Part shown: positions 2,021 through 12,182 of the stretch, one piece after another | Layout of the letters: every line of letters starts with the position of its first letter | Numbering within the stretch: the stretch's first letter is position 1 | Origin: Candidatus Hermodarchaeota archaeon | Lineage (GTDB): Archaea > Asgardarchaeota > Lokiarchaeia > Sigyniarchaeales > SOKP01 | Assembly (NCBI GenBank): GCA_048885525.1 | Contig: JBHLLP010000066.1 | Span: 1 to 13,414, forward strand | DNA: 13,414 nt | Direction: 5' to 3' | Position numbers and translations under genes: made by a program | The notes under the pieces: generated by a model | The model's input: only the letters and a program-made list of their open reading frames with translations | The model's database searches: none | What the model was told of the DNA's origin: nothing

Positions 2021-4273
2021 ATGAGCGACATTAAAATTAAAATTTACAAAATTCTTTTCTATTTAAGAGATAACATTCATCTAATTTTTTTTCTCTCATC
2101 AATTTTATCTCTTGTAATTGTTTTTTTAAATTTAATGGGATTTTCATCAGTCTTATTTCAACCCTTCACTTTACTAAGTACAATTTTTATATATTTATTT
2201 TTACCTACATATCCTATTTTTTACACAATATTTAAAGAGAAGGGTTTTACTATTGCAGAGAAACTTAGTTTAACAATCGTTATTAATTTCGTTTTTTATA
2301 TTCTTATAGGCTATATTGGTTATTTTCTAGGGATTCCTCTCACAGGCTTTTTCTTCTTTTTTTCATTAATATTATGCTATTTTTCTGTTATATCTTATAT
2401 AGCATATCGCGAACTCAAATCAGGAACATATAATTTTTTTAAATCCAAAAAAACTTTTGATGAAAAAAAGAATCAATATAGGAGTTTTTCACTAATTAAA
2501 AAGATTAAAAATTCGATTCCTTTAAATGTACTTTTGTTGATTATTTTTATTTTTTTGATTTGTATTTTAAATATTGTAAGAGTAAGTTATTTTGCAGGTA
2601 CAGATCCATGGAAACATATTTTTAATAGCAGACTAATTACCGAATATCATTATCTACCTCTCGGAAATTACAAGGGAGGGATGGGGTTAAACATTCTTGA
2701 AGCTCTAATTACTTTTTTTTCTGGTTTAGATCATATCATTATTCCGCGATATTTCATATTTTACACTTTTTTCTTATCAAGTTTAATATTTTATAATATA
2801 TCTATGAGGATTTTTAAGAATCTAAATTTAGCTCTATTTAGTGTTTTTCTCTTAGAATTCTCGTCATTAGGATTTTCAATAATGATGATCCAGTATTGGC
2901 CTTCTGGTTTAACCTTAATCATGTGTTTAATGGCGTTTTTCCTTTTATATTTAAGAATGCAGAAATTCATTCAATTAAAGCGTCCAGAGAAGAAAGCTAT
3001 TTTCGAAGATATTTATTTTATTTACTCTTTAGTAGCATTGATTTTCATAAGTGCTTTCCTTACACACGTGATAACTGCAGCAATTTTTTTATTTTCATTT
3101 ATATGGTTATACTTTGTTTATTTCTTAAAAGATTATAAAAGAGGAATTGACCTCTTATTTGTTTTTGGCTTATTTGGAATCTTATTAATCTTGAATTATT
3201 TAGGCATAGGGCGGGATTATGCTAATTTATTTATTCCAATTAACATTTCTTGGTATTTTATAGTAGCAATTGGAATTGCAGGAATCGTATCAGGAGCAAT
3301 CATTTTCTGGAAAATACAAAAATCAATTAATTTTACCAAGGGAAGATATAAATCAACAATAATAGGGAAGACAAATAAAATTTATAAGAAAATAGAGGAT
3401 AAAATAATAATTCCTCTTATTTTTAGTATAGTAATTTTATTAACAATTATTATATTAATAATAAATATTTTATTGTTTAATCTCGAAACTATCAATATAA
3501 TAAACATCACTGAAATCATACTTTTTAGTTTTTTTGCATTCTGGGGATTAATTATTTTTCAAAAAAAGCCAAAAGGTAAAGTCTTATTTATTTGGGGTGC
3601 ATTTTTTGTAGTATTATTAGGAGTAGGGTTTATCCTTAACATATTTTTAATTAATATAATGGTCTGGGAAAGAATTTTATTTCTTATCGCCCCTTTAATT
3701 GTGTTTGGTTTTATTTCATATATTCATAAACTTATAAAGGTAAATTCAATTCAGAGTGTACGTATTAAATTATTCATTTTATTAACAATTGCATTTTCAT
3801 TATTTATTACTTATTTTAATGAATTTGTAAGTATTGAGATTTTTAATACGAAAAATAGAGAAGTAAGCACTCTCCAATGGTATTCAAATAATACTCATAA
3901 TCAAAATGTAGTATTTTCTGAATTTGGATGGGGATATGTAATTAATTACTATGATTATCCTTTTAACGATAAAGATGGAGCTCTTCTATACAATGAGAAT
4001 ATCTATATCATACCCACTGAAATAGATTTATTTCCACCGGCTAATCATATTAACGAAAGTGGGATAAATCTATTAAAAGACCTTAAAAATAAATATAAAA
4101 CTGACGTATATATCATCTTCGAGAATGATTATATAATAGATAGAGGTTTTGAATTATTTGGACGTTTAACACAAGAGGAAACAGAACAATATTATAATCT
4201 CGATTATTTAAATAAAATTTGCTCATCGAAAGTCGAAGATGGCACAGAAATACCTCTATATTGGGTTATTTAA
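2021..4273 (+). CDS. Polytopic membrane protein, probable GT-C fold glycosyltransferase (AglB/STT3/PMT-like architecture)
   Basis: 750 aa with many hydrophobic segments. N-terminal LFLPTY...EKLSLTI segment resembles DUF1616-type repeats. GTDPWKH follows a TM helix (D at codon 2603-2605). A soluble C-terminal domain begins TLQWYSNNT...VVFSEFGWG. Lies directly downstream of two sugar epimerases. The CDS is certain; the function is inferred. Confidence 0.6.
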   Translation: MSDIKIKIYKILFYLRDNIHLIFFLSSILSLVIVFLNLMGFSSVLFQPFTLLSTIFIYLFLPTYPIFYTIFKEKGFTIAEKLSLTIVINFVFYILIGYIGYFLGIPLTGFFFFFSLILCYFSVISYIAYRELKSGTYNFFKSKKTFDEKKNQYRSFSLIKKIKNSIPLNVLLLIIFIFLICILNIVRVSYFAGTDPWKHIFNSRLITEYHYLPLGNYKGGMGLNILEALITFFSGLDHIIIPRYFIFYTFFLSSLIFYNISMRIFKNLNLALFSVFLLEFSSLGFSIMMIQYWPSGLTLIMCLMAFFLLYLRMQKFIQLKRPEKKAIFEDIYFIYSLVALIFISAFLTHVITAAIFLFSFIWLYFVYFLKDYKRGIDLLFVFGLFGILLILNYLGIGRDYANLFIPINISWYFIVAIGIAGIVSGAIIFWKIQKSINFTKGRYKSTIIGKTNKIYKKIEDKIIIPLIFSIVILLTIIILIINILLFNLETINIINITEIILFSFFAFWGLIIFQKKPKGKVLFIWGAFFVVLLGVGFILNIFLINIMVWERILFLIAPLIVFGFISYIHKLIKVNSIQSVRIKLFILLTIAFSLFITYFNEFVSIEIFNTKNREVSTLQWYSNNTHNQNVVFSEFGWGYVINYYDYPFNDKDGALLYNENIYIIPTEIDLFPPANHINESGINLLKDLKNKYKTDVYIIFENDYIIDRGFELFGRLTQEETEQYYNLDYLNKICSSKVEDGTEIPLYWVI

Positions 4274-5063
4274 ATATTTCATAATCTCCTAGAAATTTAA
4301 GGTCTTTTTTGCCATTTAAAATCCTATGTTTTTCTCCTTCAATTTTTACTAGTTGTGGAAGTTTACCCGTTTGACCCACTTTATTTTCTCTGGATATGAA
4401 TGTGCCGATGATACCATCAAGATCATCTGCTGCATCTAATCCTTGTTTTATAGATTTTTCAATATCTTCTCCCTTAACTAAATTACATATTTTTGTAGCT
4501 GCAGCATCTGCTAATGCAGCATTTTTTGCAAAGATAGTTACAGCATCAGCTTGCCCTAAACTAATAGCATGGCCTACTGTCGCAGAACTTGTTCCGATAC
4601 CCAGAGGGCAATCTTTCTTTTTTACTAAAAAACCTAAGTTGAGGTTCAATTCATTTTCTCCAGCATAAAGAGCAATTGTTATTGGTTCTTGAGAATCGAG
4701 TGCAATTTCTCCTCCGTTTTCAACCATAGCAATTTTGGGATAAACAAATCCAGATTCTTCACTATTGTCTTTAGTCTTCATAGCTTCAAGCATCAAATCT
4801 GCCAATGCTCCAGCGACAGCAGCCATAGGTCCAACATCACAAACTTCTGCTGTTTCAGCCATAATATTAACAATTTTGAAGTTAGTTATTACCTTTACGG
4901 GACTAAAAGAATTTAAAAAATCTCTATTCTTTGCCACAAATTTTTCTAAATTATTTCGATGGAAATAAAAACTCTTTTTTGCTTGTAAAATTGCTTTCCT
5001 TGAATCAGATATAATTGTAACATCAGATTCTTTTTCCAAAAAACGTGTTTTGTAAGTTTTCAA
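4266..5063 (-). CDS. UPF0280 family protein (ApbE superfamily)
   Basis: Family-typical motifs VGPMAAVAGALAD, VENGGEIAL, GIGTSSATVGHAISLGQADAVT and ALADAAAT. TTG start. Confidence 0.9.
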   Translation of the reverse strand: MKTYKTRFLEKESDVTIISDSRKAILQAKKSFYFHRNNLEKFVAKNRDFLNSFSPVKVITNFKIVNIMAETAEVCDVGPMAAVAGALADLMLEAMKTKDNSEESGFVYPKIAMVENGGEIALDSQEPITIALYAGENELNLNLGFLVKKKDCPLGIGTSSATVGHAISLGQADAVTIFAKNAALADAAATKICNLVKGEDIEKSIKQGLDAADDLDGIIGTFISRENKVGQTGKLPQLVKIEGEKHRILNGKKDLKFLGDYEIFK

Positions 5064-5176: not shown

Positions 5177-5668
5177 ATGAGTCAAAATAAATACGAAAAT
5201 ATTATCTCTCAATTAAAATCTGATTTAAATGCTGAGTGTGCTATAGCAAATAAATATGGAATTATATTAGGATCATTAATAAAGGAATTTACGAAAGGAA
5301 AAGTTATACCTCAAGGGATTTTATCTTTGATTTCCAATTCTAAGGACATAGCGAATGAACTTAATTTAAAAAAAATAACATCCTTTGCGTTGGAATCAGA
5401 AAAATATAATTATTTATTCTCATTTAGTGAAGAATTAATACTTATCTCAAAATTAGATTTAAATGTAAATTTAGCAAAGTTTATGCCAAATATTAGTGCT
5501 TTTTTAAAGAAATTAAATCTGAGTATAAATGAAGAAGACATAAAGAATTTTTCTGTCTTCGATTTTTCAAAAGAAATCACAAAGATTGAAGATACTCTAG
5601 AACGAGATAAAATTAGAAAAAATAAATATTCAATTATTAAGGATTTAGTTAAACACATTTCAAATTAA
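5177..5668 (+). CDS. Roadblock/LC7 (MglB/LAMTOR-like) domain protein with C-terminal helical extension
   Basis: The first ~115 aa follow the Roadblock alpha-beta-beta-alpha-beta-beta-beta-alpha pattern (YENIISQLKSDL / CAIANKYGIILGS / ILSLISNSKDIANELNL / SFALESEKYNYLFSF / LILISKLD / NLAKFMPNISAFLKKL). Immediately upstream of a small GTPase gene. Fold assigned by eye. Confidence 0.7.
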   Translation: MSQNKYENIISQLKSDLNAECAIANKYGIILGSLIKEFTKGKVIPQGILSLISNSKDIANELNLKKITSFALESEKYNYLFSFSEELILISKLDLNVNLAKFMPNISAFLKKLNLSINEEDIKNFSVFDFSKEITKIEDTLERDKIRKNKYSIIKDLVKHISN

Positions 5669-5697
5669 GTTTTAAGATTTAAAATTTTGTTTATCAT

Positions 5698-5702
5698 GGT
5701 GA
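5698..5702 (+). promoter_or_regulatory. Putative Shine-Dalgarno motif (GGTGA) for the GTPase gene
   Basis: GGTGA is a common archaeal SD core and lies 6 nt upstream of the in-frame ATT at 5709. Confidence 0.5.
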
Positions 5703-5708
5703 ACGATT

Positions 5709-7622
5709 ATTTTAAGACAAGTATTTGTTTATAGAAGCAATGAACTTTTATATTATAGACATTTTGGGAAAGCTTTAAAACAGGAAGTATTAGATCTTCT
5801 AATAGAAGATATCATTAATGAAGCACTGATTAGGACTGAATCTAATATAGATTTTCATGATTATTACAAATATAGAGTATCTTTCATTACAGATAAGGCA
5901 AATAATCTCATCTTTTTATTTGTGACAAGTTTATCTGATAAATTTGAGAATATAAAAAAAGAATTGGAAAAATGTAGATCTGAATTCTTAAGTTTATTTG
6001 AAGATATTTTACAACATCGGTTTGATACTAAAACTTTCGAGGTCTTTGATCCTACTATCGATTCTATCCATCGGAATTTACGCCCTAAAATATCTCTAGT
6101 TGGATTTTCTGGAGTTGGAAAAACAACAATTACTAAATTAATCAAAGCTGATGAAATTCCAATGCAACATATACCAACAATTACAGGAGATATTGCAACT
6201 ATAAGAATTGGTAAGCTTCACTTTCATTTGTGGGATTTCGCTGGACAAGAACAATTTAGTTATTTATGGAACAATTTTATAAAAGGTAGTGATGCGGTAC
6301 TTTTAATCACTGATTCTTCATTAGAAAATATTGAAAAAAGCAAGTATTTCCTAGATTTAATAAGAGAGCAAGCTCCGAAGGCTCAAGCTGCGGTAATAGG
6401 AAATAAGCAGGACTTAAAAGACGCGCTAAACCCTGTTCAAATTGAAAAGATTTTGGGTTTAAAAACTTACTCTATGATAGCGTTGGACCCAAATAACCGT
6501 GATAAAATGATTCAAATAATTGCTGATATTTTAGAAATGAGTGCAGAAGTTTCTCCTCTATTGAAGCCCCTTCTTGAGAGAGATAAATTAACAGAGGAAG
6601 CAGTCAGAGCTCTTAAGGATGCTGATTTTAATAAAGCAGCCTTTCTATTTGATAAAATTAGTGATTTATGCATAGAATTAGGAGATGATTCCTTAGGGCG
6701 AGAATTTTTTGATAAAGCACAAAAAATTAAAGATATGCTTAAGGAAGTAGGGGCACCTCCACGTACTCCCGCGACACCTATAGAACCCAAAGAAATGACG
6801 CCTCAAGTAAATCTTGAAAAACCTGAAGAACTTAAAGAACACGTTTCTGTTCCAGAACCAAGAATTTCAGATCAAACAATACAATCTAGCATACCACCTC
6901 AAGAAAAACCATCAATTATTACCCAAAAATTACACACTATACAAAAACCGATTGAAGCACCTAAAGTTGAAAAACCTTCAGAAATTTTAACTTCAGAGAG
7001 AAAAGAAGAAATCTCTGAACTAGAGGCTCAAAGTTTTAAACAAGTTGAACCCTCAATAAAACCAGAAATTAAGCAAGAAACTGTTGGTTTAAAGTTGAAC
7101 CCAGAAGATTTTATGGTAAAAGCTACACCAAAATCTGTAAGTTTTGTCCCTAAAGATGCGAAAGATAAATTGAAAATATCACCGTATAGTCAAGTAAAAA
7201 ATGTGGAAGAATCTAAAGCCTCTGTAGCTGTATCACCATTCAAAATATTAGATAAAAAAACACCTTCAATTCCTCCTTCACCAAAATTACCTGAAATTCC
7301 AAGAGGGCCGCTTGAATCTAAAGAAATAAAAGCTACTCCACAAATTAGTGAAGTAACAAAAGTATCTACACCAATAAAAAGTGAAATTCCAAAAAAACCT
7401 GCTTCAATTGAAACATATCAAAAAGATAATATAAATAAATCATTACTTGATTTAAAAATAAGAAAAGCAAGTATTTCTAAAATGCTTATAGAGCTTGATA
7501 TGAAAGAACTCACGGGGGAAATTACAGCTGAAGAAGCTAGGGAAAAAAAAAAGAAAATTGACTTATTGGTTAATAAAATTGATGGGCAAATCCAAGAATT
7601 ACAAAAGCTTTTAAATGATTAG
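5709..7622 (+). CDS. Multidomain small GTPase: N-terminal longin-like domain + Arf-like G domain + helical bundle + Pro/Glu/Lys-rich linker + C-terminal coiled-coil/SHOCT-like hairpin (~637 aa; ORF track start 5922 is probably internal)
   Basis: G1 GFSGVGKT (6102-6125), G2 HIPTIT, G3 WDFAGQ (6231-6248), G4 NKQD (6402-6413), plus Arf-like LWNNFIKGSDAVLLITDS. The frame is open from 5703 (after TGA at 5700-5702) and reads ILRQVFVYRSNELLYYRHFGKALKQEVLDLLIEDIINEALIRTESNIDFHDYYKYRVSFITDKANNLIFLF into the called V/M at 5922. The GTPase call is firm; the exact start is inferred. Confidence 0.85.
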   Translation: MLRQVFVYRSNELLYYRHFGKALKQEVLDLLIEDIINEALIRTESNIDFHDYYKYRVSFITDKANNLIFLFVTSLSDKFENIKKELEKCRSEFLSLFEDILQHRFDTKTFEVFDPTIDSIHRNLRPKISLVGFSGVGKTTITKLIKADEIPMQHIPTITGDIATIRIGKLHFHLWDFAGQEQFSYLWNNFIKGSDAVLLITDSSLENIEKSKYFLDLIREQAPKAQAAVIGNKQDLKDALNPVQIEKILGLKTYSMIALDPNNRDKMIQIIADILEMSAEVSPLLKPLLERDKLTEEAVRALKDADFNKAAFLFDKISDLCIELGDDSLGREFFDKAQKIKDMLKEVGAPPRTPATPIEPKEMTPQVNLEKPEELKEHVSVPEPRISDQTIQSSIPPQEKPSIITQKLHTIQKPIEAPKVEKPSEILTSERKEEISELEAQSFKQVEPSIKPEIKQETVGLKLNPEDFMVKATPKSVSFVPKDAKDKLKISPYSQVKNVEESKASVAVSPFKILDKKTPSIPPSPKLPEIPRGPLESKEIKATPQISEVTKVSTPIKSEIPKKPASIETYQKDNINKSLLDLKIRKASISKMLIELDMKELTGEITAEEAREKKKKIDLLVNKIDGQIQELQKLLND

Positions 7623-11657: not shown

Positions 11658-12182
11658 TTAAGTTCTAGAGTCAATTATTCGACGAGTTAACTCTGTAAAA
11701 GCTTCATCGACATTAATTCCAGTCTTAGCAGAAGTTTCTATATAAATACTTCCCTCGTTTTCTGCAAATGAACGTGCTTCATCCCGATCTATAACCATGC
11801 CGACATCTTCTATTAAATCATATTTATTCCCAATAAATACAAAAGGAATTTTTTCACCCGCGAACTGTCTTATCTCTGTAAGCCACTTTCTTGTTTCCGT
11901 ATAAGTTTGTTCTCTTGTTAAATCAAAGACTAACAGTGCTCCAGCAGCACCTTTATAAAACGTACTACGGATAAATTCAAATCGCTGTTGACCTCCTATA
12001 TCCCATATAGAAAGTGTTGCTATTTCGCCTTGTCTGAATTCTACATCTTTGGTTAAAATATCTACCCCCACTGTTAATTTGTAATTTGCTTGGAATCTAT
12101 TTTTAATGAATCTCTGAACAAGACTAGTCTTTCCTACAGCAGCCGCTCCAGTCAATAATACTTTTAGTTTAAAACTTGACAT
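11658..12182 (-). CDS. Rab-like small GTPase (Ras superfamily)
   Basis: G1 GAAAVGKTS, G2/RabF1-like YKLTVGVDI, G3 IWDIGGQQRF, RabF4-like FYKGAAG, RabF5-like LVFDLT, G4 NKYD, G5 ETSAK. 174 aa, ending without a Cys-containing tail. Confidence 0.95.
   Translation of the reverse strand: MSSFKLKVLLTGAAAVGKTSLVQRFIKNRFQANYKLTVGVDILTKDVEFRQGEIATLSIWDIGGQQRFEFIRSTFYKGAAGALLVFDLTREQTYTETRKWLTEIRQFAGEKIPFVFIGNKYDLIEDVGMVIDRDEARSFAENEGSIYIETSAKTGINVDEAFTELTRRIIDSRT

Follow-up and report, generated by a model that had tools for sequence, protein, structure and literature searches.

In Escherichia coli the genes infC and pcnB are initiated at AUU, and ATT, ATC and ATA are listed as starts in NCBI translation table 11. 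Near-cognate initiation is also known from eukaryotes, where eIF1 autoregulates through a poor start context. Here we analysed a stretch of 13,414 nucleotides from Candidatus Hermodarchaeota archaeon (Lokiarchaeia; assembly GCA_048885525.1, contig JBHLLP010000066.1), in the following called the window. It contains a gene for a small GTPase that is preceded by an N-terminal domain of longin topology, hereafter the longin-GTPase gene, and translation of this gene very probably starts at the ATT codon at position 5709. Initiation at AUU led by a Shine-Dalgarno sequence (SD) is a known kind of start; what is new here is the case in an Asgard lineage. No paper describing AUU or AUA starts in Asgard archaea was found in a non-exhaustive literature search.

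The locus resembles infC and pcnB in that a near-cognate AUU occupies the position of the start Met, an SD is found at normal spacing, and the start is missed by gene finders. The parallel to infC is echoed by the gene of the initiation factor aIF1, which appears to be ATT-started too. Different from both bacterial genes, the host is an archaeon with the eukaryote-type factors aIF1, aIF1A and aIF2 and not IF3, and the codon is conserved genus-wide and seems to be part of a set of dozens of genes; unlike infC, the longin-GTPase gene encodes a signalling GTPase and not a translation factor. As in eukaryotic non-AUG starts the site is weak and its use should depend on a stringency factor (the homologues eIF1 and aIF1), but it would be chosen by SD pairing and not by scanning and Kozak context. 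With the +1 frameshift site of prfB the locus shares an SD-like motif, here GGTGA, and a TGA that is in frame and directly precedes the coding sequence; however, no upstream open reading frame (ORF) feeds into it, no slippery codon is conserved, and neither is the upstream DNA.

Lokiarchaeial Arf/Rag-like small GTPases that carry a fused longin or roadblock domain were described by Tran et al. 2024 (PMC10933270), and longin-GTPase fusions are already known from the Loki-type archaeon MK-D1 (PMC10933270). The protein analysed here is like these fusions in its Asgard host and in the Arf/Arl-closest GTPase domain behind an N-terminal domain of longin topology. Unlike them, the proteins of this orthologue group have in addition a tail of ~340 amino acids (aa) that is low-complexity and coiled-coil.

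Start codon of the longin-GTPase gene

In the window, which has a GC content of 29%, a TGA at 5700-5702 lies in frame with the GTPase gene, and the frame is then open from 5703 to the stop codon at 7620-7622. Its first ATG, GTG or TTG is GTG 5922, with 73 open codons upstream of this called start. The codons right after the TGA are ACG, ATT, ATT and TTA, and reading from the second ATT, at 5709, gives (M)LRQVFVY. An earlier account made from the letters of the window (the sequence-only reading) had described the frame as open from 5703 and free of canonical starts until 5922, a GGTGA at 5698-5702 followed after 6 nt by ATT 5709, and an out-of-frame ATG at 5696 with a 12-codon ORF to 5734; on re-reading, each of these statements held, the small ORF ending in TAG at 5732-5734. 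A start-free 5' stretch of at least 60 codons was present in just 37 of the 2701 frames with at least 150 codons in this genome of 29% GC. Since so few frames show one and positions 5712-5921 are under purifying selection, the long start-free stretch of the GTPase frame is more than chance.

The 71 codons at 5709-5921 are real coding sequence under purifying selection, as dN/dS is low and the matches to all 24 same-genus orthologues begin at query residue 1-3. For codons 2-71 (5712-5921) we obtained a mean nonsynonymous divergence (dN) of 0.22 and a mean synonymous divergence (dS) of 1.44 among these orthologues, with a dN/dS of 0.15. Variable sites were distributed as 44/37/68 over the three codon positions of 70 codons, thus mostly on third positions. 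The orthologue was found in 24/24 searched same-genus genomes, the matches having 73-92% identity over 296 aa, and the orthologous open frames were 587-660 aa long. The dN/dS comparison that the sequence-only reading had suggested thus indicated purifying selection, and conservation at the protein level upstream of 5922, which that reading had considered might be missing, was seen both in this ratio and in homologues beginning with MLRQ.

That translation starts at ATT 5709 is highly probable, because the starts of homologues, the codon found in orthologues, the free variation of the preceding codons and a conserved SD converge on it. When a library of 1.8 billion representative proteins was searched, the majority of full-length homologues had their own residue 2 aligned to query residue 4 and began with MLRQ, MLRE or MLRD; an MLRQ-type start at the position of 5709 was seen in about 45 of the top 65. 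In the same genome (G000), the codons of a paralogue on contig C24 that align here are ATG-TTA-AGA-CAA. Among the 24 same-genus orthologues the codon at 5709 was ATT in 17, ATA in 4 and ATG in 3, and never ATC, while the 11 orthologues from other genera or families all had ATG except for one GTG. Homologues of the type M-[LI]-R-Q with ATG at this position, which the sequence-only reading had proposed to look for, were accordingly found in the paralogue, three congeners, the outgroups and the library, and together with the conserved SD at 6 nt they support its probable ATT initiation.

In the maximum-likelihood tree the genus formed a clade with support of 100/100, and the three ATG cases were nested separately among the ATT and ATA rows, so that ATG and ATT/ATA appear to have been swapped repeatedly at this codon. 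Within the subclade of the window ATT was kept in 14/14 members at a dS of about 1.4. L2, R3 and Q4 were fixed in frame 0 across orthologues. The two codons before 5709 varied freely (GGT, GCT, AAC and others), and ATT 5706 is therefore not a conserved start. In the congener G011, contig C11 carries tandem GTPase copies (L012 and L023, 5481-6362 and 7562-8443), one ATT-started and the other ATA-started, with GGTGA before both.

The GGTGA is complementary, via UCACC, to the 3' end of the 16S rRNA (...GGATCACCTCCT). It was found exactly in 22/24 same-genus orthologues, while the remaining intergenic DNA was not conserved, including the sequence of the 6-nt spacer (ACGATT, AAGATT, AAAAGG, AAAAAC and others). 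GGTGA at exactly 6-nt spacing was present in 21/21 rows with ATT or ATA versus 1/14 rows with ATG or GTG, with a nominal p=9e-9 that is inflated because the rows are not phylogenetically independent. Of the three returns to ATG inside the genus, two had a decayed SD, GATGG and GGTAA. No other gene of the window is preceded by a GGTGA SD, which agrees with the rarity of SD sequences in Lokiarchaea reported in archaeal translation reviews. An RNA structure masking the SD was considered and set aside: the minimum-free-energy fold pairs the SD, with a z of only -1.8 and a pairing partner that is not conserved.

On this basis the mRNA would carry a GGUGA that pairs with the 16S rRNA 3' end (...GAUCACCUCCU) and thereby brings the codon that follows after 6 nt into the P site. 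Initiator Met-tRNA (anticodon CAU) would read AUU via the first two bases with a mismatch at the third position, the strong and optimally spaced SD offsetting the weak codon, and the first residue would be Met. ARAGORN detected an ordinary initiator-like tRNA-Met(CAT) in G000; among the 34 tRNAs detected, probably few owing to introns, none stood out as an odd candidate for an initiator with an anticodon other than CAU. G000 also has a tRNA-Sec (anticodon TCA), and some TGA codons are thus probably read as selenocysteine. The weak codon may lower the output compared with AUG, or may tie the output to aIF1; it is plausible that ATT limits the expression of the GTPase.

Other starts were weighed against ATT 5709. 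The sequence-only reading had kept a +1 frameshift or an indel as a fallback, and neither fared well. For the frameshift, translation would begin at ATG 5696 or at the GTG within GGTGA (5699) and change frame within the first few codons. ATG 5696 does open 12 codons here and GTG 5699 shares the conservation of GGTGA, but ATG 5696 was found in only 3/24 orthologues (L001-L003), the others having TTG, CTG, AAG, CCG, ACG or GTG, and a start at GTG 5699 would be without an SD of its own. With L2, R3 and Q4 fixed in frame 0 the shift must moreover fall in the unconserved 6-nt spacer, a conserved slippery site is lacking, and a separate frameshift would be required at each of the 16 other loci with this layout; we consider this explanation extremely unlikely. 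An error of one base in assembly or sequencing could hide a canonical start, given the homopolymer nearby (TTTT 5710-5713) and the draft assembly of 87 contigs. This is hardly credible, as 21 separate assemblies of different species have ATT or ATA in the same frame layout, and no single-base change yields an in-frame ATG without altering the conserved M/I-L-R-Q.

It is likewise highly improbable that GTG 5922, the first canonical start and the one reported by a standard ORF caller, is the real start, with the open frame upstream as a decaying remnant or non-coding DNA. The dN/dS of that upstream stretch speaks against it. The codon also falls midway along a beta-strand in a domain predicted with confidence, it lacks a preceding SD, and in orthologues it corresponds to an internal Val that is mostly conserved. 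A neighbouring non-canonical start such as 5706, also ATT in this genome, would lie at 3 nt from the SD, too short a spacing; the aligned codon is GGT, GCT, AAC, ACC, GTT or GTC in other orthologues, and the Met of homologues aligns with 5709, which makes such a start very unlikely. Recoding of the TGA together with a start further upstream was also tried and rejected: the frame above the TGA reaches only to TAA 5673-5675 and contains no start codon, the intergenic DNA is unconserved, and TGA is a normal stop that ends 375 of the 2701 long frames.

Several points weigh against ATT 5709 itself. In the systems examined to date AUU initiates poorly, and no archaeal AUU start that has been validated is known to us. 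Nor is one mentioned in the archaeal translation reviews cited. The start was deduced from sequence comparison and predicted structure, and shared ancestry inflates the cross-orthologue statistics. Furthermore, a TATA-like TTTAAAAT, read by eye, lies at 5679-5686, and because it is only ~25 nt upstream of ATT 5709, GGTGA might conceivably lie outside the transcript.

Domains of the encoded protein

Read from ATT 5709, the gene encodes a protein of 637 aa that consists of a longin-topology domain, an Arf/Arl-like GTPase domain and a long low-complexity tail. An AlphaFold2 (AF2) model was built on an alignment of 45 sequences and reached a mean predicted local distance difference test score (pLDDT) of 86 and a predicted template modelling score (pTM) of 0.80, with pLDDT 80-92 over the 71-codon stretch. 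Counted from ATT 5709, strand 1 begins at residue 2. DSSP applied to the model gave, for residues 1-123, the order b1-b2-a1-b3-b4-b5-a2-a3 without an N-terminal helix (E2-9, E12-18, H25-41, E48-52, E55-62, E67-74, H79-97, H107-123), and this order matches the topology that PMC10933270 gives for longin domains. In the model the 71 hidden residues form strands 1-5 and helix 1 of the domain. GTG 5922 corresponds to residue 72 in the middle of strand 67-74 (LIFLFVTSL), a position with Val in most orthologues and L, I, A or S in a few. According to the model, a protein starting at 5922 would lose more than half of the longin-topology domain. The sequence-only reading was right that gene callers truncate this protein: the closest representatives in the library (76-82% identity) are all N-terminally truncated calls.

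Comparison of the N-terminal domain with Pfam and PDB sequences gave nothing significant (Clat_adaptor_s, E=0.026, in 2/18 members). Fold searches with the whole model listed GTPases only, with the GTPase domain filling the matches, and a single-sequence AlphaFold prediction of the N-terminal domain alone was poor (pLDDT 44).

The GTPase domain contains the motifs GFSGVGKT, PTITG, WDFAGQ and NKQD, in agreement with the small-GTPase signatures G1 GxxxxGK[ST], switch I Thr, G3 DxxGQ and G4 NKxD, and K138, T140, D176, N232, K233 and D235 were invariant in the alignment. It matched Pfam Arf with E=2.3e-22. The best Foldseek matches were Arl8b, Arl1 and Arf1 at about 2e-12, plus Asgard ArfR1, and in VIA-align model residues 120-280 matched small GTPases with a Z of about 21. 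The domain is Arf-like in fold and sequence, but we do not class it as a true Arf, because it is preceded by a folded domain of 123 residues and not by the N-terminal amphipathic helix that, along with the interswitch toggle, defines true Arf proteins. The tail of ~340 residues (window 6590-7622, + strand) is Pro/Glu/Lys-rich and of low complexity, followed by a predicted helical, coiled-coil-like end, and its length varies among orthologues.

ATT, ATA and ATC codons behind GGTGA across the genome

The ATT start of the longin-GTPase gene appears to be one case of a genome-wide habit. We screened for sites where GGTGA-N6-X leads into 100 or more open codons and any canonical start is more than 15 codons away. 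When X was ATT, ATA or ATC (ATH), 16/312 cases passed, compared with 7/2686 for other non-start codons (Fisher p=1.6e-11). In the control with xxTGA pentamers other than GGTGA (not beginning with GG) no ATH enrichment was detected (p=0.92). A spacing of exactly 6 nt was found in 14/19 ATH cases versus 8/37 ATG starts (p=3e-4); the ATH spacing screen has known biases, and the spacing scan is meaningful only at multiples of 3. With a relaxed definition of the SD about 30-50 candidate ATH-started genes were obtained.

At least 16 further long frames have GGTGA-N6 before ATT, ATA or ATC with the SD's own TGA in frame, for example in G000 at C12:31531, C37:22697, C22:10738, C47:24321, C24:12392 and C2:83043. 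In several of the candidate genes the domains seem to be complete only if reading begins at the ATH codon. A Ras-like GTPase candidate matches positions 1-161 of the Pfam Ras profile from residue 2 of the ATH start, an aldehyde:ferredoxin oxidoreductase candidate matches AFOR_N from residue 6, and a rubrerythrin candidate has its rubredoxin-like domain from residue 6. The same applies to ribosomal protein L10e, whose gene is among the 16 frames of the screen, and to a HIT protein.

The gene of the start-codon fidelity factor aIF1 (SUI1) itself seems to be ATT-started. In G000 it is located at C32:32305-32520 on the minus strand (L041; congeners L052-L065). Downstream of an in-frame TAA, all 13 readable same-genus genomes lack ATG, GTG and TTG up to the codons of the N-terminal zinc knuckle, and in 13/13 we found AGGTTGTGATAA, six bases and then a conserved ATT, whereas outgroups have TTG, ATG or ATA. 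The ATT is preceded by a motif related to GGTGA, AGGTTGTGAT.

We asked what this pattern could mean for expression. AUU, AUA or AUC exactly 6 nt behind GGUGA may mark a translational regulon of some tens of genes with an output set by aIF1, a proposal that we regard as tentative and rather unlikely. Its members would include the longin-GTPase, ribosomal protein L10e and others, with an aIF1 gene ATT-started in 13/13 congeners. A serious alternative to regulation is neutral tolerance of ATH behind a strong SD, whereby ATT 5709 is the start but non-regulatory and the strong SD makes ATT, ATA and ATG near-equivalent in the lineage. The several switches among ATT, ATA and ATG at codon 5709 within the genus are in line with neutrality, as is the occurrence of the layout in dozens of unrelated genes. 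Against it stand the retention of ATT throughout the subclade of the window despite the high dS, the complete lack of ATC at codon 5709, and the fixed ATT of aIF1, which suggests a purpose. Neutral tolerance has, in our estimate, somewhat less than an even chance.

Neighbouring genes and consequences

The coordinates of the features at the locus are collected below.

Features of the longin-GTPase locus (positions in the window)
Feature	Positions	Strand	Basis or remark
Gene of 163 aa, possibly Roadblock/LC7-like	5177..5668	+	conserved neighbour; ends 40 nt before ATT 5709
Out-of-frame 12-codon ATG ORF, judged incidental	5696..5734	+	TAG at 5732-5734; not conserved
Shine-Dalgarno GGTGA	5698..5702	+	pairs with UCACC of the 16S 3' end; its TGA is the in-frame upstream stop
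Probable ATT initiation codon (Met by initiator tRNA expected)	5709..5711	+	aligned with ATG/first Met of homologues; 6 nt after the SD
N-terminal stretch of 71 codons, lost in calls from GTG 5922	5709..5921	+	dN/dS, AF2 model
N-terminal domain, longin topology, residues 1-123	5709..6077	+	AF2 model
Corrected full coding sequence, 637 codons and stop	5709..7622	+	translation
GTG, first canonical in-frame start; false start, internal Val codon	5922..5924	+	orthologue alignment, AF2 model
Arf/Arl-like small GTPase domain	6081..6548	+	Pfam, Foldseek, VIA-align, motifs

In orthologous loci the GTPase gene is likewise preceded by the conserved C-terminal coding end (-HIS/-ISx) of the upstream gene. 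A Pfam search with this 163-aa gene gave no match; the protein atlas offered Roadblock/LC7 as a lead only (score 0.87-0.89), and there the cluster of the gene falls in Promethearchaeota. GTPase genes of MK-D1 are generally not in operons with roadblock genes (PMC10933270), unlike the longin-GTPase gene, which adjoins this possible roadblock gene. If it is truly a Roadblock, a roadblock gene would be paired with a longin-GTPase gene, an arrangement uncommon in MK-D1 according to Tran et al.

Elsewhere in the window, the ORFs at 2021-4273 (+, 750 aa) and 4266-5063 (-, 265 aa) gave no hit in Pfam at E<=0.01; each begins with a canonical start and lacks an SD. A stand-alone Ras-family small GTPase of 174 aa is encoded at 11658-12182 (-), with Pfam Ras at E=1.6e-48 and an ATG start without GGTGA. 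Genome-wide, 51 small GTPase matches were counted. This abundance, the second Ras-family gene and the atlas placement of the upstream gene's cluster point to a Loki-type Asgard archaeon (Promethearchaeota).

The practical outcome is a corrected protein of 637 aa with an intact N-terminal domain. By dropping 71 residues, standard callers remove over half of the longin-like regulatory domain. The affected protein family has served as an argument that Asgard archaea possess eukaryote-like machinery for membrane trafficking, and domain censuses and structure predictions made from the truncated calls are wrong for this orthologue group. The strong SD seems to be used specifically with the weak start codon, as the two co-vary across orthologues and the SD decays when ATG returns. 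The interplay of SD strength and start-codon stringency thereby becomes testable on a eukaryote-type archaeal ribosome and, together with an apparently ATT-started aIF1, points to a possible gene set controlled by a fidelity factor.

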